Below are positions 46,708 through 61,736 of a stretch of DNA of 64,000 nucleotides, piece after piece (position 1 is the first letter of the stretch; every line of letters begins with the position of its first letter). The notes below the pieces were generated by a model, which saw nothing but the letters and a program-made list of their open reading frames with translations, was not told the DNA's origin and ran no database searches. This DNA comes from a bacterium (GTDB lineage: Bacteria > Patescibacteriota > Minisyncoccia > Phycocordibacterales > UBA9973), in NCBI GenBank assembly GCA_037143195.1, contig JBAWZD010000001.1:16892-80891 (forward strand), written 5' to 3'. The translations under genes and the position numbers were made by a program.

Positions 46708-47175
46708 ATGAAAAACAAACAAGCTGGTTTTACCTTGATTGAACTTTTGGTCGTCATCGCGATTATCGGTATTCTTGCGACTATCGTGCTTACATCGCTT
46801 GGAAGTGCTCGTGTAAAAGCAAATGATGCGAAAGTTCAAGCACAACTTTCTTCGATGCGTGCGCAAGGAGAAATGTTTTTTGGCGATAATTCTAATTATG
46901 GTAGTTCACAATCTTCATATGGAGATTGTCATACAGGGGAGTTATTTCTTAGTGGATCGAATACACTCTTTTCGCTTATTACTGCGATTCCATCAACATA
47001 CACGGTAGCTTGTTATGAAGATCCGTATGGTTCAGGAAGTGCCAGTGTTTGGGCTGTTACGGCTTCGAATGGTCTTACCGTGGGGGGTGCTTCGTGGTGC
47101 GCAGATAGTACCGGTCAGTTTAAGAATTACTCAGGATCAACTCCTGTGACTCCAGTGCTTGCAGTTTGTCAGTAG
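46708..47175 (+). CDS. Type IV pilin / pseudopilin with a prepilin N-terminal methylation motif
   Basis: KQAGFTLIELLVVIAIIGILA class III signal peptide; a C-terminal Cys pair. Confidence 0.85.
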   Translation: MKNKQAGFTLIELLVVIAIIGILATIVLTSLGSARVKANDAKVQAQLSSMRAQGEMFFGDNSNYGSSQSSYGDCHTGELFLSGSNTLFSLITAIPSTYTVACYEDPYGSGSASVWAVTASNGLTVGGASWCADSTGQFKNYSGSTPVTPVLAVCQ

Positions 47176-47192
47176 CCAAATTTGTAAAGGTT

Positions 47193-47228
47193 GCAACAAA
47201 AAAACGCCGAATGGCGTTTTTTTGTTGC
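47193..47228. terminator. Bidirectional intrinsic terminator with a 16-bp perfect stem gcaacaaaaaaacgcc/ggcgtttttttgttgc
   Basis: Read directly. It sits between the pilin gene (+) and tRNA-Ala (-). Confidence 0.8.
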
Positions 47229-47259
47229 GTGTCTTTGTCTCGCGAGAATCGAACAGGTG

Positions 47260-47467: not shown

Positions 47468-50400
47468 ATGGACTGGCTTTCTGATTTTGCTAGCCGTATC
47501 CAAGAGAAACTCGATAAATATACGCGCGAGTTTTTTGTCGTGACTACTCATTTTTTGAATCGAATTACGAAGCGTTTAGGCAGTTCTTTTACGTTTACAA
47601 AAGAAAAAACACGCATATCGGTGATTGGACTTGTTGTAGTACTTGTCACTTCGTCTATCATTTTTGCTCCACATAGTTCTGCGACGGTTTCTGATTTTTA
47701 TCCAGGTACTTGTTCTGGTGGGTGGCTCAATCCTCAGAATGCCACTGGTTTACCGTCACTCGATGGGGTGCAGCCTGCGAATAGCTATACAGAAAAAAAT
47801 TCTGCTGTGCTTAATAATTCACATTCTGATATCGTTTGTAATAACTTTGCCGGAAATATTCCAAGTGGAACAAATCCAAAAACATTTACGGTTAAATTCC
47901 ATTGGTCGATTGACGACGGATCTGTTGCACATGATGGGGTGTCTACTCCCACACCAGCTACGACAACAGATGTTATTTCTGCACCAGCTACGACGTCTCA
48001 ATCACCAAGCGACACCACCACAGCTACACAAACTCCAACCGATACAAAAACTACAACTGACACAACAATCCCTGCATCAACAATCACGACACCAACACCA
48101 ACACCAACTTCAGACACGACAACGACTCCACCAGCTACACCAGTAATCACACCTGATGCAACTCCGGTAGTTCCAGCAACTCCGGTACTTACTGCGCCAA
48201 CTACTTCGTCCGATACTCAGCCCGCAGCAGACACGACAATTCCAACAACAACGCCTGCGGCTACTACTGCAACAACCGATCAACCAAAGACAGTAGCGTC
48301 TGCATTCAAAAAAACACTTGCAACTCTCGATGCGCTTGTAACGGACGCGTTGAGTGCTGGTGACACAACAATGTTTCATTCTCCAAGTGATATGTTTGTC
48401 GTTCGCTATTCCGTAGACGGAACTAACTGGAACGATATTGGCACAGTCAATGCTGCAAATTGGCAGACTGCTACGTTTACGATATCTGGGCCAGACATCG
48501 CAGGATGGAGTGATCTTTCAAAATTACATGTTGGACTTTTTAGTCTTTCTCCTGATGGAACACAGCCTGTTGTGTATATCGATGCTGTTGAAGTCGATGT
48601 TGATTATGCTGATGCGAGCACTTCAGTTATCGTTCCGACAGTGAAAGTCGTCGACCCGTCTATCTCAATCGTTGCTCCGCAAAAAGATAATTTTACTTTG
48701 GATGAGGCACCGGTGTTTTCTATCACTAACCCAAATCTTTCAACTGCTCAAATTTTACACCTTGTTCAAAATGACAAAGCCGTCGTTGTTGACGACCACT
48801 TGGGTGTTTTTTCTGAGACAGCACCCAAAACGATACCAACGCAACCTCCGACGAGTCAGACAGATACAGGCCCGACAAGTTCGACTTTGACAGCACCAGC
48901 GCAATCTCCAAGCGACACCACCACAGCTACACAAACTCCAACCGATACAAAAGCTACGGCTGATACAAAAGTTCCCACTGATACAAAAACTACAACTGAC
49001 ACAACAATCCCTGCATCAACAATCACGACACCAGAACCAACACCAACACCAACACCAACTTCAGACACGACAACGACTCCACCAGCTACACCAGTAATCA
49101 CACCTGATGCAACTCCGGTAGTTCCAGCAACTCCGGTACTTACTGCGCCAAGTGAAACAACATCAGCTCAAACTGTAACGCCAGCACCAGTATCGGCGCC
49201 TGTTCAACCAGTTTCAGATTTGAATAGCGCGATTTCGACGAGTACGGCAGATTCTTCAAACCTCGGCGCGTTTGCTGTTGGTGCGCTTGGATCGGATATC
49301 ACTGGCGTCCAAGCGTTTCAGAAAGTTGATTTCAAGCACCTATTTGCGAACACCGTTCTGCGCTATTACAGCATGATGCGACAGGTATTTCGTATGTCGT
49401 TTGCAAACGCATTGCTTGCGCTTGCGGGGGACACGGCATCATCACCAATCGATGCTGTGGTGCTCGATGCTTCAGGCAATCAAACGACGATTGCAGTTAC
49501 AGTACAACATGTGGTCGTGAATGGTGTTGGTCAAGATCAAGTTGTCGTCAGTAAGCCTGACAATATGTTTCGTCCTGGAAAATATACGCTTCAAGTTACA
49601 TTACATACTCCCGACGTGAATATCATTTCCGAACAAGATTTTTCATGGGGCGTACTTGCAATCAACGTTGATCGTTCCGTCTATCACGCAGGAGACACCG
49701 CGTATGTACAGATGGGTGTGATTGACGACTTTGGGCATACAATCTGTGATGCCGACATGACGCTCGTTATTACGAGTCCATTTGGTGTTGATCAGACATA
49801 CACGACGAGTGATGGGACTGTCGTACGCGAACCGCAATGTGGACCGGACAATTATATTCATGTCCCTGATTACTATGCACATCCCCATATTGGGAGCGAG
49901 GAAGGTGTGTATCATATGACACTCACGGCGAATACGCGAAATGGTATTCGTACGGTACACGATGCGTTTACGGTCAGCTCTGATATTCCATTTGATGTTG
50001 TGCGTAGTGGTCCGACTCGTGTGTATCCGGCCGATAAGTATCCGGCAGAAATGCAGATTACTTCGCCTGTCGATTGGCAGGGAACAATCGTTGATACGCT
50101 ACCGAGTTCTTTTGAGGTGAGTGCGCTCGATGGAGTGGCTCTGTATGATACTGTGACGACGACTGGTGATACAACGACGGTGACATGGAATGTTTCGCTC
50201 GTCGCAGGCAAAACAACAACTATCGGATATTCATTCTTGCCGCCACCAATCAGTCCAGAATTTTATTTGCTCGGACCGCTCACTTTTTATAATAAAGGTG
50301 ATGACAGTACGACTGCCATTCCGGTCTTTAAAGAAATGCGTCGTTGGCAAATCGCAGACGATTCTTCATGTACATATATCGGTCCAGCGATTGGATTTTG

Positions 50401-53400
50401 GAATAATGCGAGTAACTGGAGTTGTTTACGTGTGCCAACAACGGGCCCAAATAGTGATACGGTAACAATTCCGACTGGAAATACTGTTACTCTCGACACG
50501 AACACACCAGCAACTGGTGGTGCGCTTACCTTACTTACTATTGCGGGGACACTAAAGACAGGATCTGCTGGTGTTGATTACAATATAAATACTACGGCTT
50601 TAACCATAAGTAGTGGAGGTGTTTTGAATGCAACTTCGGCCGCTTCGGGTTCGACGATCATTATTAACGGGAGCGGGACGGGTGCAGGTCGCCCATTTCA
50701 GAATGCCGGAACATTTACGCCCGGAACTTCTACTTTTCAATATGTTACTTCAGGTACTGATATCGAGGCTACTACGTATTATAACCTTACCATCAATGGT
50801 GGATCTGGAAACGACACATTAAATGGCGATACTATTGTTACGAATAATCTTTTGGTGGGAAACGCGAGTAGTGGTGTTGCCTTTTCTACATCAGCAACTT
50901 CCAATTATCGCCTTACTGCAGGACACATCACATTAGGTCCTGTATCTGCGGGCAGTATGACCTTCGCTGCGAATGCCTCAACTATTACCCTTACTGGTGA
51001 TACCTCTTTGCCACTGTTTACCAATAGTGTCGCTGGGGGCAGTACTGCCTTCATTGCTGGAACTTCAACAATTTCTGTTACGAGTGATTATAGCGGTGTA
51101 ACTATTTTTGGAGGATTGGCCACTAACTTTTACAATATCACGTTACAGCCAAACTTTTCCGCTGCTACCTGTGCTTCTGGAACATGTAATTATTCAGTCG
51201 GGGTTTTGCCGACAGTAGCAGCAGCAGGTCTATTTGACGTAAAACCGAACGGATCGGGGCATACGTTAACAGTTGACGTAAATACTATTGCAACGAATTC
51301 AACTTTTGGCGCTTCAGCTACTGTTAAAATAGAAGGCACCGCGGGCGCTTCTGGCGTCCTGACAGGGTCCGGATGCGTGTATACTGCGAGTACGTTGCCA
51401 ACGTTTTATGGGGTGATAACAACTTTGAACGGAGCAAGTGGGTTAGGAACATCGTTTTTAGTTAATTCGTCTGCTGGCATTGTTCCGGGAGAGCCAATAC
51501 AGATTGACTCAGAAGAGATGCTTGTGAATACCGTTGTTGGTTCAACGCTTAATGTTACTCGTGGTTTGAATGGAACCTCGATTGTGAGTCATGCGACTTC
51601 TGCCATAGTTATTGAACCATATCAGCCAATGGGGACGCCGTGTTATACAAAAACAATTGATGTCGAGTCCGGAGGCACGTTTAGCGGATCTTCGACATTT
51701 TTTGAGGTCTCAAATATTTTGGTCGGGAACGGAGGACAATTCAATGCAGGTTCATCCTCATTTATTTATACAGATGGTCTTATTAGTTCGAATCAAATTC
51801 TGATTTCGAGCGGAGGTACATTTAATGCAGGAAGTAGTATTATAAATATAGGTGGAGATAATACGTTACAAAGTACTGGTACTACAAATACTTTTATAAC
51901 GAATAATGGTACATTCACCGCTGGAACTTCAACTGTCTATTTTAATATGGTAAATAATGGTTCGGCAGTTAATCAAATTTACAATGCTGGTTTGTGGACA
52001 GGCAGCAACAAGTTTTATAATCTTGCTCTGAATACGTATGTTCCAGGTACAAATAATTATCAATTGGGAGCTGATACTGAAGTTGCAAATATCGTATCAT
52101 ATGGTAGATGGGGGGCTCGATTAGATACAAATAATTTTAATTTAACTGTTGGGTATGTTGATTTTTGCCATTCTCTCGGACTGGGGGCATTTATTGTTAC
52201 GAATGCTTCGGGCACCAAAAGTGTAACGCTCAACGGTGCATCAGGAACATTGTTTAATAATGTGAATAGTGGTACTGGAGCCTTTGCAAAAACGTGTACT
52301 GGAGCATCTGCTATGACTACGACAACTGCGAATTTCGCAGTAACGAGCAATGCGAGTGTGACTATATTTGGGGTGTCTGCAATTTCATTTACAAATTTAA
52401 CCTTCGCTCCTCCTGCACTGCTAGCTGATGCAACATACACAATGGGTATTGTGCCGACACTCTCAGGTAGTTTAACAAGTAATCCATTGTCGCCGAGTGG
52501 CACCCCAACGCTCTTACTTTCTGGAGCATTAACAATTCCAGCAGCAAAAACGTTCACGGTTTCTGGAGATAGCCACACAAGTACAAAATTGTTGAGTAAT
52601 TATAGTGTGGGGCTCGTCTCAATTGCGTCAACTGGTATTCTTCTGGCAAATACTACAACATTGACGATAACAGGTACATCTGGAACTTTATTTGCAAACA
52701 GTGGAACATTTACGCCTGGGACTTCGACTGTGACGTTTGGTGGAGCGAGTGTAAGCGCAACTTTGGACTCGGGCAACTTTGCTATTAGTGGTACCTCAAC
52801 AAATAACTTTTACAACCTCACGATAACTGGCACAGGTACATTTACCCTTGGTGCGCCAACTGAAGTGACCGGTACTTCTGGTATTTCTCTTCCAGCGAAC
52901 GTAACACTTGATGCTTCGTCTTCGGCATGTTCAGGTTTAAGTTGTAACATTACGGCAGCAACTATTTTTATTACAAGTAATGCTGGTTCAATATTCAACG
53001 CAAGAAATGCAACTATCAAGTTGACTGGTACCGGAACTCCTGCAACACTCTTCACACGCGGTTCCGCAGGAGTGTTTACTGCGGGTACTTCGACGGTCCA
53101 AGTCATGACTCCGTCAGGAGTGGCACGTTTCCTCTCTGGTGCGGGAACGGTATTTTATAACGTGACGATCGGGGATGCCGGAGTCAGTGCCACTGTTGTA
53201 AATGCGGGAGACAACTTCACTATTGCGAGTGGAGGTACATTTTACTTGAAGAATGGCAGTTTTGATCTCGACGGTTCTACAGTTGCTGTGATTACGGCAT
53301 CGTCATCGACGACCATGCGCATGGATTCTGGTACGCTCTTTTGTATTGGAGGTACGACTGGTGCCTCGGCGCTCGCCGATTGTACCGGAGGTGTGGCTTC

Positions 53401-54169
53401 GACTGGTGCACTCGCATCTGCTCCAGCATTCACGACATTTACCTTTGCTTCAGGTTCAACAATCAAATACTTGAATGCTGCAGCCCAGACTGTTTTCACT
53501 GCATTCCCATACGTTAACCTTACGGTTGCACCGATAGTGGCAGCAGCTACGACATATGCAATGACGGCTGCATCGATGACGGTGAACGGCAATCTTACGG
53601 TCAATCCGACAGGATCTGCGTTTGCGTTTGTGTGGAATATGTCTGGTTCGATTGCGATTACCCCGCAGGATGGTACGACAAGCGCAGTAAACGAAATGCT
53701 GATTAAAAAATCAGGCTCAGTCACATCTGTTACGGTAAACACGAACAATAATACAATTACGACAGGTACGATGGATATCGAGTCGGGCGCGACACTTAGC
53801 GCTGGTTCGTCCAATATTACAGTGCCGGGCAACTGGATTTGTAACGGGACGTTCACTTCAGGTACTTCAAGCGTTCTCTTGAGTAACACGATCACCACAC
53901 TTCCATCATCAACACTCACTACCGTTGGGGGAATCAACAGTGCCGTTCTCTCATTTTCTGTCGCATCCGGGACCGGCATTGTCGCGGGGGAAACGATTCA
54001 GATTGATAACGAAATGATGCAGGTGACAGCAGTCAGTGGAACGACAGTTACCGTCGCGGCTCGTGGAGCAAACGGCACGGCAGCTATCAGTCACTCAGCC
54101 GGAGCGACGGTGCTAGTCATTGTCGGCGTTGTATCAGGAACAACGTCATTCGCAAACTTGATCATCTAA
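47468..54169 (+). CDS. Giant (2233 aa) cell-surface protein: N-terminal anchor, Thr/Pro mucin-like repeats, and a long array of predicted parallel beta-helix-like Gly/Thr/Ser/Asn-rich repeats
   Basis: A single uninterrupted ORF. Signal-anchor helix (ISVIGLVVVLVTSSIIF). The recurrent motif F.NAGTFT.GTSTV appears at least five times. A duplicated ~45-aa module GE.IQID.E.M.V...G.T..V.RG.NGT..SH..A occurs near aa 1360 and at the C-terminus. Confidence 0.8.
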   Translation: MDWLSDFASRIQEKLDKYTREFFVVTTHFLNRITKRLGSSFTFTKEKTRISVIGLVVVLVTSSIIFAPHSSATVSDFYPGTCSGGWLNPQNATGLPSLDGVQPANSYTEKNSAVLNNSHSDIVCNNFAGNIPSGTNPKTFTVKFHWSIDDGSVAHDGVSTPTPATTTDVISAPATTSQSPSDTTTATQTPTDTKTTTDTTIPASTITTPTPTPTSDTTTTPPATPVITPDATPVVPATPVLTAPTTSSDTQPAADTTIPTTTPAATTATTDQPKTVASAFKKTLATLDALVTDALSAGDTTMFHSPSDMFVVRYSVDGTNWNDIGTVNAANWQTATFTISGPDIAGWSDLSKLHVGLFSLSPDGTQPVVYIDAVEVDVDYADASTSVIVPTVKVVDPSISIVAPQKDNFTLDEAPVFSITNPNLSTAQILHLVQNDKAVVVDDHLGVFSETAPKTIPTQPPTSQTDTGPTSSTLTAPAQSPSDTTTATQTPTDTKATADTKVPTDTKTTTDTTIPASTITTPEPTPTPTPTSDTTTTPPATPVITPDATPVVPATPVLTAPSETTSAQTVTPAPVSAPVQPVSDLNSAISTSTADSSNLGAFAVGALGSDITGVQAFQKVDFKHLFANTVLRYYSMMRQVFRMSFANALLALAGDTASSPIDAVVLDASGNQTTIAVTVQHVVVNGVGQDQVVVSKPDNMFRPGKYTLQVTLHTPDVNIISEQDFSWGVLAINVDRSVYHAGDTAYVQMGVIDDFGHTICDADMTLVITSPFGVDQTYTTSDGTVVREPQCGPDNYIHVPDYYAHPHIGSEEGVYHMTLTANTRNGIRTVHDAFTVSSDIPFDVVRSGPTRVYPADKYPAEMQITSPVDWQGTIVDTLPSSFEVSALDGVALYDTVTTTGDTTTVTWNVSLVAGKTTTIGYSFLPPPISPEFYLLGPLTFYNKGDDSTTAIPVFKEMRRWQIADDSSCTYIGPAIGFWNNASNWSCLRVPTTGPNSDTVTIPTGNTVTLDTNTPATGGALTLLTIAGTLKTGSAGVDYNINTTALTISSGGVLNATSAASGSTIIINGSGTGAGRPFQNAGTFTPGTSTFQYVTSGTDIEATTYYNLTINGGSGNDTLNGDTIVTNNLLVGNASSGVAFSTSATSNYRLTAGHITLGPVSAGSMTFAANASTITLTGDTSLPLFTNSVAGGSTAFIAGTSTISVTSDYSGVTIFGGLATNFYNITLQPNFSAATCASGTCNYSVGVLPTVAAAGLFDVKPNGSGHTLTVDVNTIATNSTFGASATVKIEGTAGASGVLTGSGCVYTASTLPTFYGVITTLNGASGLGTSFLVNSSAGIVPGEPIQIDSEEMLVNTVVGSTLNVTRGLNGTSIVSHATSAIVIEPYQPMGTPCYTKTIDVESGGTFSGSSTFFEVSNILVGNGGQFNAGSSSFIYTDGLISSNQILISSGGTFNAGSSIINIGGDNTLQSTGTTNTFITNNGTFTAGTSTVYFNMVNNGSAVNQIYNAGLWTGSNKFYNLALNTYVPGTNNYQLGADTEVANIVSYGRWGARLDTNNFNLTVGYVDFCHSLGLGAFIVTNASGTKSVTLNGASGTLFNNVNSGTGAFAKTCTGASAMTTTTANFAVTSNASVTIFGVSAISFTNLTFAPPALLADATYTMGIVPTLSGSLTSNPLSPSGTPTLLLSGALTIPAAKTFTVSGDSHTSTKLLSNYSVGLVSIASTGILLANTTTLTITGTSGTLFANSGTFTPGTSTVTFGGASVSATLDSGNFAISGTSTNNFYNLTITGTGTFTLGAPTEVTGTSGISLPANVTLDASSSACSGLSCNITAATIFITSNAGSIFNARNATIKLTGTGTPATLFTRGSAGVFTAGTSTVQVMTPSGVARFLSGAGTVFYNVTIGDAGVSATVVNAGDNFTIASGGTFYLKNGSFDLDGSTVAVITASSSTTMRMDSGTLFCIGGTTGASALADCTGGVASTGALASAPAFTTFTFASGSTIKYLNAAAQTVFTAFPYVNLTVAPIVAAATTYAMTAASMTVNGNLTVNPTGSAFAFVWNMSGSIAITPQDGTTSAVNEMLIKKSGSVTSVTVNTNNNTITTGTMDIESGATLSAGSSNITVPGNWICNGTFTSGTSSVLLSNTITTLPSSTLTTVGGINSAVLSFSVASGTGIVAGETIQIDNEMMQVTAVSGTTVTVAARGANGTAAISHSAGATVLVIVGVVSGTTSFANLII
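48003..48200 (+). repeat. Copy 1 of a ~200-bp near-identical intragenic direct repeat (copy 2 at 48906-49150 carries two short in-frame insertions)
   Basis: DNA-level identity read directly: ...accaagcgacaccaccacagctacacaaactccaaccgatacaaaa... ...ccggtagttccagcaactccggtacttactgcgcca. It encodes QSPSDTTTATQTPTDTK...TPVLTAP twice. Confidence 0.85.
48906..49150 (+). repeat. Copy 2 of the intragenic direct repeat
   Basis: See copy 1. Confidence 0.85.
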
Positions 54170-54173
54170 AAGT

Positions 54174-56114
54174 ATGGTACTATTTTCACACACATCTATG
54201 TTTGGAAAAAAAATACAAAAAATTACTTTTTCAATCATCATTCTCTCCTTGTTGCTTGGGTTTTTTCCGAGTGACACATACGCGCTCGTTGCACTTTGGA
54301 CTGCGTCGCCAATTGCTACATCTACGGGAACAAAGACTGCTATTGCAACATCGGCAGATGGAACAAAACTTCTTGCGGGAGAAGGAGGTGGAACGAACGG
54401 AAAATTGTGGCTCTCGACGAACAGCGGTGTTTCGTGGACAGCACTGAGTACTGCGAGTTCGGGAATGGCGAATGGCAACTGGTTTGCGACTGCTATTTCT
54501 AACGATGGCCGAACAATGGCCGCTATTGATACAAATTCCGAAGGTACAACAATTGGACACGTTTGGACCTCTGTTGATGGAGGGACGACCATGGTAAAAC
54601 AAAATGGTACGAATGCCCCGTACGCTGCTCTGCTCGGCTTGGCTATGGCTGTAAGTGGATCCACAATCACAATAGTTGCGAGTGGAAGTAACGCTGATTA
54701 TTTATACACAGGGACTTGTTCAACCTCGTGCGGACTTACAACGAACTGGACTTGGACCAAATTAACATCTGCTGGTTCGGGAACATGGCGTGGAGTAACG
54801 ATAGATTCGACAGGGACAAAAATAGCAGGTGTTTTGAACGGTGGGTATATCTGGACAGGTACGTATAGCGGTTCGTGGACGATGACTCAACAAACCGGAG
54901 CCGGTTCACATACGTGGCTTGGAATTGCTTCGTCGCAAGATGGGAGCAGACTTGCTGCGACTATGAGTGGTGGCGATATTTGGACAGCGCAAGCACTCGG
55001 TACAGGCGCCTGTACTAGTAGTGCTACAGGGTATTGTTGGACTGACCAAACAGGATCAGGATCGAGCGCTTGGTACCAAATTGCGTCGTCAGCTGATGGT
55101 ACCAAGTTGCTTGCAGCTTCTTCGTTCTCAGGATCATCAAGTGTGTATGTCTCAAGTGATAGCGGGGTAACATGGGTTGCGCAACCTTCTGCGGGTAGTC
55201 GACCATGGCGCCAACTTGCGATGTCGTCTACTGGTCAATATATGTATGGTGCGGATTTGAACACATCAACAAACGGGATGATCGTTTCAGGGTACTCTCC
55301 GCAATTTTCTAAGCTAGTCCAATTTAGTGGAAGTGTTACTACTTCAAACTCATTTTCGGTAACTGGATACAGTGGAGGACTCATCAAACTTTATTCAACC
55401 AAGCCTGGTACTACGTGGTCGCTTACTCCCGCATTGACGGCGAATAATTCTGTTTCTTTTGCTGATGTGCAAGACAGTAGTTGCTCGGGCGCATCGAGCA
55501 CGAAAGTGATCAATGCGGCTTCGAGTACAGACGATGGACGCAATTCGTTGATTGGTACCGGCGGATGTTGGAATTTCACTCAGCCATATTTGAACTTTTC
55601 AATTTCAGCGACGGCGGTAGATTTTGGAGCTCTCCCAATCGGCACTGCTCGGTATGCAACTGGGAACGCACTTTTGGGAGGATCTCCCACCGATGTTGCC
55701 GCTCATCAGATTACAATTGCCACAAGTGGATCGGGTGGTTTCAATTTGTATGCGCAAGGACCATCGCTTACTTCTAGTACCCACACAATGCATTCGATTG
55801 GCGGAGTAAATACAAACATTTCCTCGTTTACGCCGACAACAGAAGAATTCGGAATTCGTCTTGTGAGAACGTCGGGGCCGGGTACTGTTGCAGGCGATAC
55901 ATTGCTCGTTCCGCCAACTGCGTATGATTATGGTGGAAATGGGTCAGGATATACTTATAACGGAGATGTTACAACTCCTGTTATCGCGACATATCGCGGA
56001 AGTTTGTTGACGACGACGGTATATGACGTACATTATGTTGCCTACGCGGTGGGTACGACGCCGTTGGGGAATTATTCGACCAATATTACCTATCTTGCAG
56101 TCGGAAACTTTTAG
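54174..56114 (+). CDS. Secreted BNR/Asp-box beta-propeller-like protein with a C-terminal WxL-like (Y-x-L variant) surface domain; the start is probably the Met at 54198
   Basis: Signal peptide (KITFSIIILSLLLGFF). Repeated S-x-D-G-x-T-W Asp-box motifs (STNSGVSWTAL, TSVDGGTTM, SSDSGVTWVA). The C-terminal ~180 aa are homologous to the C-terminus of the next protein and end NITYLAVGNF. Confidence 0.65.
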   Translation: MVLFSHTSMFGKKIQKITFSIIILSLLLGFFPSDTYALVALWTASPIATSTGTKTAIATSADGTKLLAGEGGGTNGKLWLSTNSGVSWTALSTASSGMANGNWFATAISNDGRTMAAIDTNSEGTTIGHVWTSVDGGTTMVKQNGTNAPYAALLGLAMAVSGSTITIVASGSNADYLYTGTCSTSCGLTTNWTWTKLTSAGSGTWRGVTIDSTGTKIAGVLNGGYIWTGTYSGSWTMTQQTGAGSHTWLGIASSQDGSRLAATMSGGDIWTAQALGTGACTSSATGYCWTDQTGSGSSAWYQIASSADGTKLLAASSFSGSSSVYVSSDSGVTWVAQPSAGSRPWRQLAMSSTGQYMYGADLNTSTNGMIVSGYSPQFSKLVQFSGSVTTSNSFSVTGYSGGLIKLYSTKPGTTWSLTPALTANNSVSFADVQDSSCSGASSTKVINAASSTDDGRNSLIGTGGCWNFTQPYLNFSISATAVDFGALPIGTARYATGNALLGGSPTDVAAHQITIATSGSGGFNLYAQGPSLTSSTHTMHSIGGVNTNISSFTPTTEEFGIRLVRTSGPGTVAGDTLLVPPTAYDYGGNGSGYTYNGDVTTPVIATYRGSLLTTTVYDVHYVAYAVGTTPLGNYSTNITYLAVGNF

Positions 56115-56177
56115 GTATGACGCACAATGTTGCATTTTTTTGGGAGAATTGTGCTATAATAACTGCGTAAAATTAAT

Positions 56178-57332
56178 ATGAAAAAAAATAGTATGATTAA
56201 GAATAAATTTTTGCGATTTTTGTCGCCACTCATGTCGTTCGTGCTTGTTCTTGCAACGGCAGGGTTGTTCAATGTCTCTATAGTGAGAGCTGCCTCTTTG
56301 ACTCTCTTGTCAGATACCCTTACGGATGAGACGACGGGGGCTCCGACAAATAATGATATTCTTTTTACGACAAGTTCTACCATTCCTACCAATGGCACAA
56401 TCACACTTTCATTTAGTGCCGGTAGCGTTACTTCAGGAATCACAACTTCGGATGTGTTTTTGTCAGTAGGTGGTGGCGCAAACGTTGCGCAAGTCGGATC
56501 TGCTACTTCATCTCTGTGGGGATTCGCTCGAACAAGTGCAACTCTCATTACGATTACAGCGCCAACAAGTGGCTCAACTTCTGCGAGTGCAATCGAAATT
56601 AAACTTTTGAACAATAAATTTACGAATGGTGCTGCTGGAACGACTTTGTTGACTATCACTACGACAAACGCAGCATTTGCAACTTTGGATACTGGGGTGA
56701 TAGCGATTCCAATTTTGTCACCAACCACAACAGGTGATCAGGTTGCAGTTACAGCTACAGTGAATCCTACGATTAGTTTTTCACTTGATTCAAACTCAGT
56801 TGATTTCGGACCTCTGACACCTGGTACGGGCAAGTGGGCAACATCACCATCAGGATCTGGAGGCTCAGGAAGTGATGTCGCGGCTACGAACATGACGATT
56901 TCGACGAATGCTGCACATGGGTACACGCTTACATATACTGCGGCCGCTCCACTTACTTCAGGATCAAATACGATTCCAGCGACAACGCTTTGTAATACAC
57001 TGACGACGACAGGAGGCACATCAACATCGCAGTTTGCGATGAGTGAGGTAGTTACTGGTTCTGGAACACCGGTAACTAGTTACAACCATGCGAATGCATC
57101 AGCCACAACTCTTTCGGGAAGTAGCGGTACGTCAGGAGCAACTTGTACCGGTACAGGAGGAACTCGTCCGAATTGGAACTTTGTTTCGGGTACAACGACG
57201 CCGATAGTCACAGCTACATCTGCTGTTGCGGGTGATACGGTAGCGATGCACTATATGGCAAACGTATCCGGCACTCAGGCCCCAGGTACCTATAACCTTA
57301 CTATCACTTATCTTTTAACGGGTAATTTTTAA
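56178..57332 (+). CDS. Secreted surface protein with a C-terminal WxL-like (Y-x-L variant) domain
   Basis: Signal peptide. The C-terminal domain ISFSLDSNSVDFGPLTPGTGKWATSP...GTYNLTITYLLTGNF is paralogous to the C-terminus of the 54174 protein. Confidence 0.65.
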   Translation: MKKNSMIKNKFLRFLSPLMSFVLVLATAGLFNVSIVRAASLTLLSDTLTDETTGAPTNNDILFTTSSTIPTNGTITLSFSAGSVTSGITTSDVFLSVGGGANVAQVGSATSSLWGFARTSATLITITAPTSGSTSASAIEIKLLNNKFTNGAAGTTLLTITTTNAAFATLDTGVIAIPILSPTTTGDQVAVTATVNPTISFSLDSNSVDFGPLTPGTGKWATSPSGSGGSGSDVAATNMTISTNAAHGYTLTYTAAAPLTSGSNTIPATTLCNTLTTTGGTSTSQFAMSEVVTGSGTPVTSYNHANASATTLSGSSGTSGATCTGTGGTRPNWNFVSGTTTPIVTATSAVAGDTVAMHYMANVSGTQAPGTYNLTITYLLTGNF

Positions 57333-57337
57333 TTCTT

Positions 57338-58399
57338 ATGAAAATAAAGACACTCCAAGGTGTGATGTTTGCTGTGTTGCTTGCGTTTGGTTTTGTATCT
57401 CCACAAATAACTCACGCGCTTACCATAACTCCTTCACGCCTTGAATTGAGTGGAGATCCGGGTACGACTGTCACTGAAAAAATGACAGTGGTCAACGATC
57501 AAAACGTTCTTGGAACATACTATTCTTCCTACGCGAACTTCGAAGCCGAGGGGGATACAGGAACCCCAGCGCTTGTTGAAGCCAAAGATGATCTTGGGAC
57601 GTGGATGAGTACTCCAGATTCTATTGTGGTAGCACCAGGTGGATCAAAGGAAGTTGTAATAAAAATTGCAATTCCTAAGAATGCTACACCGGGAGGTCAC
57701 TTCGCGGCCATTTTTTGGGGAACTCAGCCAACAAAGAATGCAAATAAAAATATAGGTATTGGTGCAAAGACTGGCATGCTCGTTTTGCTCACTGTAAATG
57801 GAAATATTCCAGAGCAGGGAGGTGTGACCGAGTTTGATACCATCGGAAGCACTCATTACTTCAACGCACTGCCGATTCCTTTTTACTACCGTTTCCAAAA
57901 TGGAGGAGGTGATCGCATCAATCCAAGTGGTGACATTCTTATGAAGGATATGCTTGGGCTTACAGGAGCAAAAGTTCCTGGTAATCCAGTTGATGGAAAT
58001 ATTCTTCCACTCAGTACTCGCAAATTTACAACAACATGGTCAGGTGGTGCAGGGGAAGAAGGTAAGCTTCCAAAAGGATTCTTTGCCGCTGCAAATTATG
58101 AGTTACACAACTTTGCACTTGGACGTTACACTGCTCACCTCAAACTCACATATGGCTCGAAGGGGGTAGTGACTGATTCAGTCGTTCATTTTGTTGTGTG
58201 GCCATGGCATCTCGTCGTGTTTGTTCTCATCCTCGCATTTGTTATCTTCCTCGTTGTTCGCTACGCAGTACTCCATGGAGAAAAATGGGTAGTCAACAAA
58301 GCTGAGAAAATGCTTGAGAAAGACGAAGAAGCAAAAATCGAAGAACGAGTTGAAGAAAAATTGAAAGAAATCGAAAAGGAGAAAGAAACAAAGCAGTAA
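57338..58399 (+). CDS. DUF916-like (CscA-like) cell-surface protein with a C-terminal TM anchor and a charged tail
   Basis: Signal peptide; an N-terminal domain (ITPSRLELSGDPGTTVTEKMTVVND..., IKIAIPKNATPGGHFAAIFWG) resembling DUF916; a C-terminal TM helix (HLVVFVLILAFVIFLVV) plus a KE-rich tail. Confidence 0.55.
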   Translation: MKIKTLQGVMFAVLLAFGFVSPQITHALTITPSRLELSGDPGTTVTEKMTVVNDQNVLGTYYSSYANFEAEGDTGTPALVEAKDDLGTWMSTPDSIVVAPGGSKEVVIKIAIPKNATPGGHFAAIFWGTQPTKNANKNIGIGAKTGMLVLLTVNGNIPEQGGVTEFDTIGSTHYFNALPIPFYYRFQNGGGDRINPSGDILMKDMLGLTGAKVPGNPVDGNILPLSTRKFTTTWSGGAGEEGKLPKGFFAAANYELHNFALGRYTAHLKLTYGSKGVVTDSVVHFVVWPWHLVVFVLILAFVIFLVVRYAVLHGEKWVVNKAEKMLEKDEEAKIEERVEEKLKEIEKEKETKQ

Positions 58400-58462
58400 A
58401 AACCAAAACCGCCACCCGATAGGGTGGCGGTTTTGGTTTGAATGCGTTAAAATATATCTGTT

Positions 58463-59698
58463 GTGAAGCACTCAATTTTCCCAAAAAAAATCAGACGAGC
58501 GTTTAGTATTCTTTTTGTCTGTACGTTTGTGCTTGGATTACTTCCTCAAACTTCTTTTGCTACTCCATCACCAATTTCAGATGGCGTTACGATTTCTGCT
58601 CAGGTCGTAAGTGTCGGTTCAGTTGTTCCTCCGACGGTCACTACAGATCATCCATTGGTGACTGTGAGCGACAACGGGGCGACGTTGCTCGGAACACTCT
58701 CCGACGGTGGAGATTCTGCTGTGACAACCGAAGGATTTGAATATGGACTCGCGTCGCCTTCATATGGAACGACAACGACTTCAACATCAGTTGGTTTTGG
58801 TAATGGACAATTCAACGCGATCATAACGGGTCTCGTATGTGGCACGACGTATCACTATCGTGCGTATGCAGAAAACGGTGCCGGTCGTGCATACGGAACA
58901 GACCAAACATTTACAACGAATGATTGTTCTGTGAATGTACTTCCAGTCACTTCCCCGGGGAATGGAGGAATACTTACTGCGTCGGCGGTAAACTTTTCTG
59001 GCTTTGCATACCCAGGAGCGACAGTGACAATCCTGCGTGACGGCGTAATTGTTTCAAATGTTCTTGCGGATTCATCCGGAGCGTTTCTGTCGCCGGTGTC
59101 GGGAATTCAAGCAGGTTCATATGTTTTTTCTATCTATGCAAAAGATCAGAATGGTGTTGTGTCAGCGTCCACGACATTTCCATTTGTCTTGAATGGAAAA
59201 TCAGTCGTGAATATTACCAACATATTGGTTGCTCCGACAATATCAGCAGACAAGACGATTGTGCAGTCAGGCGACACACTCACTGTTTCCGGTTTCGCTA
59301 CTCCGTACGCAAAAGTTGCAATCACGAGTAAACAATTGACCACCGTGTACGACGCTATCGCTGATGCTGGTGGCCGATATCAATATCAGATTGATGCATC
59401 AGCGCTCGCAACTGGTGCCTACACCATGCACGCCATTGATATTGTTGCGGGGCAGAGTAGTCCTATCAGTAAAGGTATTCTCTTTTTGATGGGCCTCTCG
59501 ACGACCAAAGTAAAAGAGACCAATCTCGGATGCGCAGGCGGTGATTTAAATGGAGATGGCAAAGTGGACATCATCGATTATTCAATCATGAAATATTGGT
59601 ACAAAAAACCAAATCCACCAGCATGTGTTGATCTCTCTGGCGATGGAGCGATCAACTTGAAAGATTTTAGTATCCTCGCTTCTGATTGGACAGGATAA
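58463..59698 (+). CDS. Secreted multi-Ig/FN3-like protein with a C-terminal dockerin-type duplicated calcium-binding module
   Basis: Signal peptide. The C-terminus carries DLNGDGKVDIIDYSIM ... DLSGDGAINLKDFSIL, two dockerin-like Ca-binding loops. Confidence 0.65.
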   Translation: MKHSIFPKKIRRAFSILFVCTFVLGLLPQTSFATPSPISDGVTISAQVVSVGSVVPPTVTTDHPLVTVSDNGATLLGTLSDGGDSAVTTEGFEYGLASPSYGTTTTSTSVGFGNGQFNAIITGLVCGTTYHYRAYAENGAGRAYGTDQTFTTNDCSVNVLPVTSPGNGGILTASAVNFSGFAYPGATVTILRDGVIVSNVLADSSGAFLSPVSGIQAGSYVFSIYAKDQNGVVSASTTFPFVLNGKSVVNITNILVAPTISADKTIVQSGDTLTVSGFATPYAKVAITSKQLTTVYDAIADAGGRYQYQIDASALATGAYTMHAIDIVAGQSSPISKGILFLMGLSTTKVKETNLGCAGGDLNGDGKVDIIDYSIMKYWYKKPNPPACVDLSGDGAINLKDFSILASDWTG

Positions 59699-59702
59699 TT
59701 GT

Positions 59703-60683
59703 ATGAGTATAGCGAAACTACAAAAAAATTCGTTTTTCTTCATCGTTCTCTTTTTTTCGATGTTCGTTTTTTCGCATCAGGCCCGAGCGGCGAGTATTAC
59801 ATTTCAAACGTCATCGACGGTCGTGCACCAAGCACAAAATATTGCGATTGATGTCTTGCTTGATCCGCAAGGTCAAAATGTGAACACCGTCTCAGCGACT
59901 GTTTCAATTCCAACAGATCTTGATTATGTTGGTGTTGATGACAGCTCCTCGATTATTAGTTTGTGGGTTGATGAACCAAAGTTTGACAAGAAAACTCGTA
60001 CCATGACACTCTCAGGAATTATCCCTGGAGGATTTGCAGGATCGATTGATCCGTTTAATCCGTCTGAATACAAGGCGGGTATCCTCATTCGATTGTTACT
60101 CCGAGGCCGTACAGCAGGTTCAGGATTGTTTTCACTTCCTGATGTCGAAGCATATTTGAATGATGGTCTCGGCACACAGACCCATGTTTCATCTGGTTCG
60201 CTCCCACTCGTCGTCGATGAATTGTTGCAACCTGGATCGCTTGATTTCTTCCCAGACAACCAAGCTCCGCTTGAATTCCAGCCAGTTGTCGAACGTGATT
60301 TGCTCCTCTATGATAATCAACGCGTACTCATTTTCAATACCAAAGACAAAGGCTCAGGTATGGATCACTATGAGGTCAAAGAAGGGAATGCTTCATGGGT
60401 AGTCGCAGTAAGTCCATACCTCTTGAAAGATCAGGAGATGAAGGGAGATATTTTGGTGAAGGCGGTGGATCGTGATGGCAACGAACGTATCGAAGCTATT
60501 CCCGCAGCGAATCCGTTCAACAAATGGCAAATCGTTGGACTGTTTGTAGTGTTCATATTGCTTGTGGTGCTCACGATGATGCACCTGTCCCACCATATGC
60601 ACCATTCAATCAAGAAGCATATTGAGAAGAAAGAAACTGAAAAGGGTGGATCAGCCAAGGAGGACGTAATTCAGAAAGTATAG
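59703..60683 (+). CDS. Membrane-anchored protein with an N-terminal cohesin-like beta-sandwich domain (candidate dockerin receptor)
   Basis: Signal peptide, a cohesin-like segment (ITFQTSSTVVHQAQNIAIDVLLDP...VSATVSIPTDLDYVGVDD), and a C-terminal TM helix (IVGLFVVFILLVVLTMM) with a His/Lys-rich tail. Confidence 0.45.
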   Translation: MSIAKLQKNSFFFIVLFFSMFVFSHQARAASITFQTSSTVVHQAQNIAIDVLLDPQGQNVNTVSATVSIPTDLDYVGVDDSSSIISLWVDEPKFDKKTRTMTLSGIIPGGFAGSIDPFNPSEYKAGILIRLLLRGRTAGSGLFSLPDVEAYLNDGLGTQTHVSSGSLPLVVDELLQPGSLDFFPDNQAPLEFQPVVERDLLLYDNQRVLIFNTKDKGSGMDHYEVKEGNASWVVAVSPYLLKDQEMKGDILVKAVDRDGNERIEAIPAANPFNKWQIVGLFVVFILLVVLTMMHLSHHMHHSIKKHIEKKETEKGGSAKEDVIQKV

Positions 60684-60684
60684 T

Positions 60685-61599
60685 ATGCATATCGTAAACG
60701 CTATTTTGATTGTTCTCGGTCTCGCGATTTTTGAAATTGTCTCAAGTATCGACAATGCCGTCATCAATGCTGAAATTCTCGACACGATGAGTGCTCGTGG
60801 ACGCAAGTGGTTTATGCTTTGGGGATTTTTGTTTGCAGTCTTTGCGGTTCGTGGACTACTTCCATGGGTCATCATCTGGGCGACGAATCCTTCACTCGGA
60901 GCTGTTGGAGCGTTGACTGCAACGTTCTCAAACGATCCTCGCATCGCGGCTTCTATTGCACAATCAGCGCCACTCTTGCTCGCGGGCGGGGGAATATTTT
61001 TGGTATTTCTTTTCTTGCATTGGCTTTTCTTGGAACCAAAACAAATCGGTTTGCATCATGAACGATTCTTTTTGCGTCAGGGTGTGTGGTTTTACGGAGT
61101 CGCTGCGGTCATTCTCTCTATTGTCGTTTGGTATGGACTCAAAACAAATCCCATCATGGCGTTTGGAGCAGTCATTGGTTCCACTGCATTTTTCATCATG
61201 CATGGATTCAAAGAAAATGCCGAGCGCGCAGAAGAGAAACTCAAGAGCGGGGAGAGCAGTCGCTCTGATCTCTCAAAAATTTTGTACCTCGAAATTATTG
61301 ACGCATCGTTTTCTATCGACGGTATTTTGGGTGCATTCGCATTCACGCTCAGCGTGCCCTATATCTTGATTGGGAACGGAATCGGCGCCTTCGTCCTCCG
61401 CGAGCTCACCGTCAAAAATATCGACACCATCAAGAAATATGTCTTCCTCAAAAACGGCGCCATGTACGCCATCGGTGCACTCTCCATAATCATGCTCCTC
61501 GGCGCCTTCGGCCACGAAATCCCAGAATGGGTCTCACCTCTCGTCATGCTAGTAATTGTAGGTTATTTCTTCCATAAATCGAAAAAGGTAATTCGATAA
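60685..61599 (+). CDS. TerC/DUF475-family integral membrane protein
   Basis: Multiple TM helices. The SIDNAVINAEIL and IDASFSIDGILGAFAF paired motifs are typical of the TerC/DUF475 superfamily. Confidence 0.6.
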   Translation: MHIVNAILIVLGLAIFEIVSSIDNAVINAEILDTMSARGRKWFMLWGFLFAVFAVRGLLPWVIIWATNPSLGAVGALTATFSNDPRIAASIAQSAPLLLAGGGIFLVFLFLHWLFLEPKQIGLHHERFFLRQGVWFYGVAAVILSIVVWYGLKTNPIMAFGAVIGSTAFFIMHGFKENAERAEEKLKSGESSRSDLSKILYLEIIDASFSIDGILGAFAFTLSVPYILIGNGIGAFVLRELTVKNIDTIKKYVFLKNGAMYAIGALSIIMLLGAFGHEIPEWVSPLVMLVIVGYFFHKSKKVIR

Positions 61600-61736
61600 A
61601 AAGTCGGGGAAAATTTTAAAAATGTACTTTGCGAAGCACCCGCGGAGCGCGACGGCGCGAGCGTGAGGCGAAATTTCTTCAGAAATTTACGCCGGTGCTT
61701 CGCAAAGTACATTTTTAAAATTTTCCCCGACTTTTT
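61598..61736. repeat. 43-bp perfect inverted repeat (arms 61598-61640 and 61694-61736) around a 53-nt spacer that has its own nested palindrome (aaatttcttcagaaattt)
   Basis: The left arm aaaaagtcggggaaaattttaaaaatgtactttgcgaagcacc is the exact reverse complement of the right arm. It overlaps the TerC-like stop codon and the guaA -35 element. Confidence 0.9.

Follow-up and report, generated by a model that had tools for sequence, protein, structure and literature searches.

A membrane-anchored cohesin and its dockerin-bearing neighbour: a candidate anchor for a Pam-type pilus in the candidate phyla radiation

We analysed a stretch of 64,000 nucleotides (nt) from a patescibacterial genome (lineage Patescibacteriota; Minisyncoccia; Phycocordibacterales; UBA9973; GenBank assembly GCA_037143195.1, contig JBAWZD010000001.1, positions 16,892 to 80,891), which in its entirety is called the window below. 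The focus is on two adjacent genes, A and B, located at 58463-60683 of the window. In the original prediction, made from the letters of this stretch alone, A was described as a dockerin-bearing protein and B as a membrane-anchored protein with a cohesin-like domain, and the two were proposed to form a minimal tethering pair that holds a surface protein consisting of immunoglobulin-like (Ig) and fibronectin type III (FN3) domains on the cell. Protein lengths and residue numbers are given below in amino acids (aa). The two genes and their parts are as follows.

58463-59698, forward strand: gene A, an open reading frame (ORF) of 411 aa with a GTG start, encoding a secreted adaptor protein that comprises a signal peptide, a donor-like strand, an FN3-like domain, a flexible linker, two Ig domains (Big_6/Big_13) and a C-terminal dockerin
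58577-58615, forward strand: putative donor strand of A, residues 39-51, SDGVTISAQVVSV, right after the signal peptide
59528-59695, forward strand: dockerin module of A, residues 356-411, two repeats of a calcium loop plus helix, with WTG at the C-terminus
59703-60683, forward strand: gene B, an ORF of 326 aa, encoding a type I membrane protein that comprises a signal peptide, a cohesin domain, an Ig-like domain (D2), a transmembrane (TM) helix and a basic cytoplasmic tail
59790-60218, forward strand: cohesin domain of B, residues 30-172, a nine-strand beta-sandwich
60285-60500, forward strand: domain D2 of B, residues 195-266, a small Ig-like beta domain with the motifs DKGSG-DHYEV and VKAVDR-GN
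60522-60680, forward strand: TM helix (residues about 274-296, from a hydropathy scan) and Lys-rich cytoplasmic tail of B

The C-terminal region of A matches the Pfam profile Dockerin_1 (PF00404) over residues 360-405 with an E-value of 3.4e-8 and 34.0 bits against a cut-off of 22.9, which bears out the prediction of two dockerin-like loops at the end of this gene. The two tandem repeats of about 22 residues, DLNGDGKVDIIDYSIMKYW and DLSGDGAINLKDFSILASDW, each consist of a 12-residue, EF-hand-like calcium-binding loop followed by a helix. The first loop (D361-LNGDGKVDIID-YSIMKYW; D361-D372; nt 59543) is followed by the second (D390-LSGDGAINLKD-FSILASDW; D390-D401; nt 59630), in which serine replaces asparagine at loop position 3 and the tryptophan is shifted one residue further. 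The helices, residues 370-378 and 399-407, are modelled by AlphaFold2 (AF2) with a predicted local distance difference test score (pLDDT) of about 90. A six-frame scan of all 64 kb detected no dockerin-type loops other than these two, which argues against a chance match. Upstream of the dockerin, Pfam recognizes the Ig domains Big_6 (E 6.6e-13) and Big_13 (E 8.2e-7). In the AF2 model of the entire protein (pLDDT 80), the signal-peptide helix is followed by a disordered segment (residues 28-53), an FN3-like domain (60-152), a flexible linker (157-168), two complete Ig domains of very high confidence (174-343) and the two-helix dockerin. A database record identical to the 411-aa product exists, and dockerins in Paceibacterota are already known from automatic annotation.

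The AF2 model of B, built with 69 homologs, has a mean pLDDT of 92.5 and consists of nine main strands within residues 30-172, a second beta domain at 195-266 and a long C-terminal helix at 274-325. When this model was compared to the PDB with Foldseek, more than 40 of the top 50 matches were cohesins, with a probability of 1.00, and these included types I, II and III. The top match was the cohesin-FN3 double module of the Clostridium perfringens GH84C protein (2w1n, E 1e-10), and the best single-domain superposition was obtained with the non-cellulosomal cohesin of Archaeoglobus fulgidus (2xdh, TM 0.78, root-mean-square deviation 2.9 Å). A sequence profile of the B family also matched the ScaB cohesins of Ruminococcus flavefaciens (5aoz/5m2o) in the PDB, with E-values of about 1e-3. 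The signal peptide, beta-sandwich and C-terminal TM anchor that the original prediction assigned to B are all recovered by the AF2 model and the hydropathy scan, and the N-terminal domain is indeed a cohesin-like nine-strand sandwich; the prediction overlooked the second beta domain (195-266). A Pfam check had been proposed as well, with a split outcome: the domain in the window has no match to Cohesin (PF00963), whereas 62 of the 130 homologous domains from related loci do (best E 8.5e-13), along with weak matches in 10 of the 69 full-length family members. Thus, at the sequence level, the cohesin assignment reaches B only through its relatives, and B appears to be a divergent member of the cohesin superfamily.

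Conservation within the cohesin domain is uneven. Strands 3, 5, 6 and 8 are more conserved than the opposite sheet (2.37 vs 1.80 bits, p=0.016, with strands assigned to the sheets by canonical cohesin topology and not by coordinates), and 16 of the 22 most conserved positions fall on these strands or in the beta8-beta9 loop. The 8-3-6-5 sheet is the canonical dockerin-binding face of cohesins, and the conserved surface of the family includes the motifs FSGIIPGG and NDGxGT. The best-conserved part of the B family is D2, with a mean of 2.68 bits vs 1.97 for the cohesin and with invariant columns; it has a weak match to an OmpL47-type barrel in NCBIfam (E 0.009). Domains of the D2 type are also present in 10-38 tandem copies in giant metagenomic proteins of 1,600-5,300 aa (P0196, P0197, P0213). 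As a separate observation, when the cohesin-domain profile is compared to PDB sequences, the top match is 7urp_A (E 5.6e-4), a chain of 160 residues deposited as 'Ribonucleases G and E' that aligns along the same N-terminal strands as the cohesins and may be a cohesin-like domain with an uninformative label.

The B family consists of proteins of about 300 aa from metagenomes of the candidate phyla radiation (CPR), including Paceibacterota. An initial set of 75 homologs contained none with a Pfam annotation, and at E<=1e-30 the family comprises 3,585 representatives of clusters formed at 50% identity. To survey the gene neighbourhoods, one genome per GTDB species was scanned, which yielded 249 relatives of B, and 80 loci were fetched; these came from Paceibacterota, Komeili-, Lipton-, Nomura-, Magasanik-, Kaiser-, Falkow-, Wolfe-, Zambryski-, Harrison- and Peregrinibacteria. 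One further locus (L006) stems from Ca. Microsyncoccus archaeolyticus PMX.50, which is in culture, and comprises chaperone, Ig-Ig-dockerin and two cohesin genes. Dockerin and cohesin genes were identified by domain-wise iterative searches with hidden Markov models and cross-checked against Pfam; in two loci (L001 and L002), the cohesin gene is present but was missed by the ORF caller.

The association between the two genes is strict. We identified 74 dockerin proteins in 74 loci, one in each, and exactly one dockerin gene accompanies the cohesin gene(s) in 72 of 81 cohesin loci. All nine loci that lack a dockerin gene start less than 1 kb from the cohesin gene and are uninformative because the contig edge removes the upstream region; the co-occurrence across related genomes, proposed as a check of the original prediction, therefore holds in every informative locus. 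The dockerin gene lies upstream of the cohesin gene within three ORF calls in 69 loci, with direct adjacency in 53, and Pfam Dockerin_1 was confirmed in 58 of 65 upstream proteins. Throughout the related loci, the dockerin module occupies the extreme C-terminus, ends in WTG and is conserved far beyond the rest of the protein. Precomputed annotation places the genes in the same order around a relative that is only 51% identical to B, and 65 of 70 short forms and 67 of 68 long forms of the family carry a TM anchor after the cohesin. The window contains no cohesin-type gene other than B, which is separated from A by 4 nt and has AGGA ahead of its ATG. The long forms, TM-anchored proteins of about 400-700 aa encoded directly after the short cohesin gene (e.g. 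L006 10885-12600, L010, L053), combine D2 and additional Ig domains with a cohesin of a distinct subtype (FEGI-LNPGF...LANDGxGTNI). Up to five cohesin genes occur in some loci, still with a single dockerin gene.

Non-cellulosomal cohesin-dockerin pairs are already a known phenomenon. What is new here is a huge, unannotated family of TM-anchored cohesins that is paired gene for gene with an Ig-Ig-dockerin protein across the CPR, and also the placement of this pair in Pam-type pilus operons, with a plausible mechanism of anchoring. Among the papers searched, none connects cohesin or dockerin modules with CPR bacteria.

The A-B pair closes what is probably a Pam-type pilus operon. The Pam pilus is known from Ca. 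Mycosynbacter amalyticus (Troman et al. 2026 preprint, doi 10.64898/2026.03.03.709456), where the pilins polymerise by donor-strand exchange via a linker strand and PamC and PamD are PapD-like chaperones with a C-terminal TM helix. PamR combines tandem FnIII domains with an additional N-terminal strand and a TM helix of its own; it is predicted to enter the final pilin of the filament and to serve as its anchor. Neither cohesin nor dockerin appears in the preprint. Upstream of A, the window encodes the following proteins.

47468-54169, forward strand: giant surface protein, 2233 aa, Pfam G8 (1.2e-5), first gene of the probable operon
54174-56114, forward strand: large pilin-like protein, 646 aa, with a repeat-rich N-terminal region and a putative Pam pilin C-domain
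56178-57332, forward strand: putative Pam-type pilin, 384 aa, with the linker strand GDQVAVTATVNPT (residues 186-198) ahead of the C-domain
57338-58399, forward strand: chaperone-like protein, 353 aa, with a signal peptide, two beta domains and a C-terminal TM helix

The gene junctions from 47468 to 61599 measure 1-63 nt. The only strong terminator of the region, a hairpin with a 17-bp stem at 47192-47229, is located just upstream of the giant gene, and a good promoter match is found at 61735; housekeeping genes (UvrABC, Ddl) lie upstream of the operon. Gene A is located between the chaperone-like gene and B, and a cassette of pilin(s), chaperone, Ig-Ig-dockerin protein and cohesin recurs in many loci. 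The chaperone-like gene directly precedes the dockerin gene in most of the loci in which the dockerin protein carries the class I head described below. A profile of the 353-aa protein matches EfmWxLIP1 (9i25/9i1y) in the PDB over residues 30-265 (E 3e-4), and Pfam WxLIP_PGBD was detected in 16 of 31 members of its family (best 2.3e-8), which suggests, at the level of sequence, that the WxL clusters of Firmicutes are evolutionarily linked to the CPR Pam-pilus chaperones; such homology is not mentioned in the Troman et al. preprint.

In the two related loci L001 and L003, the giant gene also precedes the pilins, and the 646-aa pilin-like gene is conserved in L003. The giant protein contains two near-identical Thr/Pro-rich segments of about 90 aa, around residues 180-270 and 490-580, and a weak resemblance to the donor-strand motif is seen at its C-terminus (SAGATVLVIVGVV...), with a score of 17.7 for the L003 homolog under the position weight matrix (PWM) introduced below; the counterpart in L001 carries a Pam pilin C-domain. 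The N-terminal region of the 646-aa protein has no Pfam match and contains repeated S-x-D-G-x-T/S-W-like (Asp-box/BNR-like) motifs; it is possibly a beta-propeller, and the protein may be an adhesin or tip subunit. Immediately before the 47192-47229 hairpin lies a small gene resembling those of type IV pilins (46708-47175, N-terminal methylation motif E 3.9e-11). On the other side of the pair, a membrane protein of the DUF475/TerC family (60685-61599) starts 1 nt after the stop codon of B, an adjacency kept in L001 and L003. A role of this protein in supplying metal to the dockerin was considered and rejected, the two genes being adjacent in just 3 of 57 loci, and for the same reason the TerC/DUF475 gene probably lies outside the system.

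The dockerin proteins consist of a constant tail and a variable head. The Ig-Ig-dockerin tail is the same across the loci and is preceded by a poly-glycine linker, which in most family members is pure and reaches about 20 glycines (L010, L017, L018, L040, L051, L080 and others); A of the window has a shorter, non-glycine linker (residues 157-168) instead. In class I heads, to which A belongs, the signal peptide is followed by a short alternating strand, SVxIxAxV (VTISAQVVSVG in A), and optionally by a Cys-rich repeat or an FN3 domain. Residues 28-53 of A, which include this strand, have a pLDDT below 50, and the strand is left without a partner in the monomer model. Class II heads carry in its place a module of about 60 aa (DFSSTNF, DPV, three S-x-S-F repeats and GFLYFP, in this order), 18 of the 20 occurrences of which are on dockerin proteins. 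Class II is represented in L011, L023, L026, L027, L030, L031, L038, L043, L045, L047, L051, L056, L058, L067, L070 and L078, often preceded by proteins of 1,000-2,100 aa.

The class I strand resembles the donor strand of the pilins. Matches to a PWM of this strand are 8 times denser in pilins than in unrelated proteins, and 8 of the 9 matches in pilins are located 11-22 aa before the Pam C-domain, that is, at the position of the donor or linker strand. For the scoring of the window proteins, the window and its closest relative were left out of the matrix, and the strand of A scores 17.6 with the matrix built from the other loci. The two classes also differ in their genomic context: class I proteins are accompanied by an upstream chaperone gene in 21 of 23 loci and by pilin genes in 19 of 23, whereas class II proteins have neither in any of 12 loci (0/12 for each; Fisher p=1e-7, computed with no correction for shared ancestry).

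Taken together, A and B very probably act as a one-to-one cohesin-dockerin tether by which A is held at the cytoplasmic membrane. The tethered cargo is probably a filament rather than A alone, given that the pair ends a probable Pam-type operon and that A appears to carry a pilin-like donor strand; for the combined statement, namely, that the pair is such a tether and that A serves as the base adaptor or terminator of a Pam-type filament, our estimate is a probability of about 55%. The core idea of the original prediction, the tethering of an Ig/FN3 protein, is thus supported, but the pair is probably not a free-standing display module and belongs instead to a likely pilus operon. Under the proposed mechanism, both proteins would be exported by Sec; B would be held in the membrane by its C-terminal TM helix, with the cohesin displayed atop the small Ig-like domain, and A would be fully secreted. 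The C-terminal dockerin of A, whose folding requires Ca2+, would dock onto B's cohesin, with the conserved 8-3-6-5 sheet as the probable binding face. The mature N-terminus of A would be a free beta strand resembling the linker (donor) strand of the pilins, and we propose that it fills the open Ig fold of the pilin added last, aided by the membrane-anchored chaperone-like protein encoded upstream. Such an insertion would end elongation and join the filament to the cell, with the FN3-like domain, flexible linker and two Ig domains of A forming the stalk in between. In this view, A and B would together be the counterpart, split into two proteins, of the one-piece PamR.

Several observations weigh against this combined interpretation or blunt the evidence for it. 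The pilin assignments fall short of the NCBIfam cut-off: against 55 bits, CPR_Pam_pilin_C (NF058581) gives 42.1 bits (E 9.1e-11) for the 646-aa protein and 37.4 bits (E 2.5e-9) for the 384-aa pilin. The best PWM match of the 384-aa pilin is the linker strand itself, GDQVAVTATVNPT, with a score of 10.0, which is unexceptional alone. The comparison of A to the PDB with Foldseek, inspected for likeness to RbmA or PamR, retrieved generic tandem FnIII arrays only and is not diagnostic. To these points add the divergence of the window's cohesin from the Pfam profile, the topology-based assignment of its strands and the effect that shared ancestry may have on the association of head types. Most related loci encode a second, longer cohesin, which is absent from the window and its close relatives. 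Finally, about a third of the dockerin proteins have a different head and no chaperone or pilin gene nearby, which implies that the cohesin-dockerin module is a general anchor and not a pilus-specific one.

This last observation feeds the most serious alternative, under which the pair merely holds A at the surface as an adhesin or spacer, with no link to a pilus, and the co-location with pilus genes reflects nothing but shared regulation of surface structures. The cohesin-dockerin pairing itself, which this explanation shares, is well supported, and the Ig-Ig-dockerin tail bears class II, FN3 and Cys-rich heads in loci that lack chaperone and pilin genes, so the anchor works independently of pili in those loci. 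We nevertheless consider this explanation doubtful for A: class I proteins start with a conserved unpaired strand like the donor strand of the pilins, this head is tightly associated with chaperone and pilin genes, and A itself is encoded between the chaperone and the anchor, with short gaps between the genes of the operon.

Improbable, in our assessment, is an arrangement in which the dockerin of A is not the partner of B. Under this explanation, the beta-sandwich of B would be a PamR-like or chaperone-like domain that binds pilins or cell-wall material, and the dockerin of A would be a Ca2+-binding module for some other partner, such as the second, longer cohesin-type protein found in other genomes or the surface of a host. 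It is compatible with a window domain too divergent for Pfam Cohesin and with the greater conservation of D2 than of the cohesin, and the extra cohesin-type genes make the assignment of partners ambiguous in most loci. Against it, B is the sole cohesin-type gene of the window and the two loops of A are the sole dockerin loops in 64 kb; very divergent genomes keep one dockerin gene per locus beside the short cohesin gene, and the conservation falls on the canonical dockerin-binding strands. We know of no other established function for cohesin folds that have neighbouring dockerins.

An intercellular role, with the dockerin of A engaging cohesins of another CPR cell or with the pair bridging to a host, appears highly improbable. 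CPR bacteria do live attached to hosts, and dockerin-rich giant proteins of other ultra-small bacteria have been proposed as adhesins (PMC10066038), but the strict one-to-one adjacency and the probable translational coupling of A and B across the 4-nt gap fit a self-contained two-part anchor, and unrelated hosts would not carry a matching cohesin. A miniature cellulosome-like enzyme scaffold, for which the sole argument is the presence of both module types that define cellulosomes, can be rejected on domain content, there being a single cohesin, no multi-cohesin scaffoldin or carbohydrate-binding module, no catalytic or glycoside hydrolase domain among the proteins of the operon, the dockerin protein included, and only one dockerin in the window, on an Ig/FN3 protein.

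The tether-and-terminator interpretation can be set against several known systems. Its closest parallel is PamR, which, like A plus B, is encoded next to TM-anchored chaperones and Pam pilins and combines an N-terminal strand, an FnIII/Ig stalk and attachment to the cytoplasmic membrane. For PamR and PamE, completion of the open Ig fold by the strand in the donor-strand register is reported. PamR is a single polypeptide with a TM helix, and its role is itself only predicted, whereas in the window a dockerin terminates the stalk and the separate protein B carries the TM helix. No single gene of the window unites the three features of PamR, namely the N-terminal strand, the FnIII tandem and the TM helix: A provides the strand and the Ig stalk but lacks a TM helix, which B provides. 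The 353-aa protein, in turn, is a candidate counterpart of PamC and PamD by its architecture and position. Among other chaperone-like proteins, those of the Firmicute WxL clusters (WxLIP DUF916/DUF3324; PMC10599100; EfmWxLIP1) are homologous to the 353-aa protein and share its layout, and surface attachment is non-covalent in both systems. Cohesin and dockerin modules are not known in the WxL clusters, and Pfam detects no WxL domain in the proteins of the window. A comparison with chaperone-usher (Pap/Fim) and sortase-assembled pili shows a shared proposed logic, in which a donor-strand subunit stops the growth of the fibre and holds it to the cell, but here there is no usher, no outer membrane and no sortase (LPXTG) signal on A, and anchoring is proposed to be non-covalent and Ca2+-dependent. 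In Pap pili, the polymerisation-ending, fibre-fixing subunit is PapH.

The cohesin and dockerin modules have counterparts of their own. The best structural matches to B, 2xdh and 2w1n, are non-cellulosomal modules, single cohesins or dockerins outside cellulosomes, and in 2w1n the cohesin is followed by an FN3-like domain, as it is followed by a beta domain in B. These examples reside on enzymes or soluble proteins, and none is TM-anchored and paired with a neighbouring gene in a pilus operon; compared to them, the CPR family is much larger and strictly syntenic. The anchoring scaffoldins of cellulosomes (the OlpC/SdbA type of C. thermocellum, 4dh2; ScaE/ScaB of R. flavefaciens, 5m2o, 5aoz) also use a cell-bound cohesin to capture a dockerin partner, and the folds match. 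Their attachment to the wall is through SLH domains or sortase and they bind multi-cohesin scaffoldins loaded with enzymes, whereas B has a TM helix and one cohesin, and the stalk of A is a non-enzymatic one made of Ig and FN3 domains. Non-cellulosomal cohesins and dockerins were reportedly surveyed by Peer and colleagues in 2009, a study cited in PMC10066038, and such pairs have been catalogued for years, mostly with no function assigned.

If the proposed mechanism is correct, it would give these modules a concrete role, and for lineages without a one-piece PamR the pair would supply the missing anchor of their Pam-like pili. The pair would also add a new orthogonal specificity group of cohesins and dockerins for protein engineering. 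Ca2+-sensitive anchoring, which the mechanism suggests, would be relevant to the reported easy shedding of Pam pili. As a more tentative extension, against which the odds lie somewhat, a Ca2+-dependent cohesin-dockerin plug may be the standard anchor that attaches both Pam-type pili and surface assemblies with interchangeable heads to the single membrane of thousands of CPR lineages. Such a plug would represent a third mode of pilus anchoring, non-covalent and potentially releasable, beside ushers and sortases, and the first non-cellulosomal cohesin-dockerin pair with a defined cellular function.

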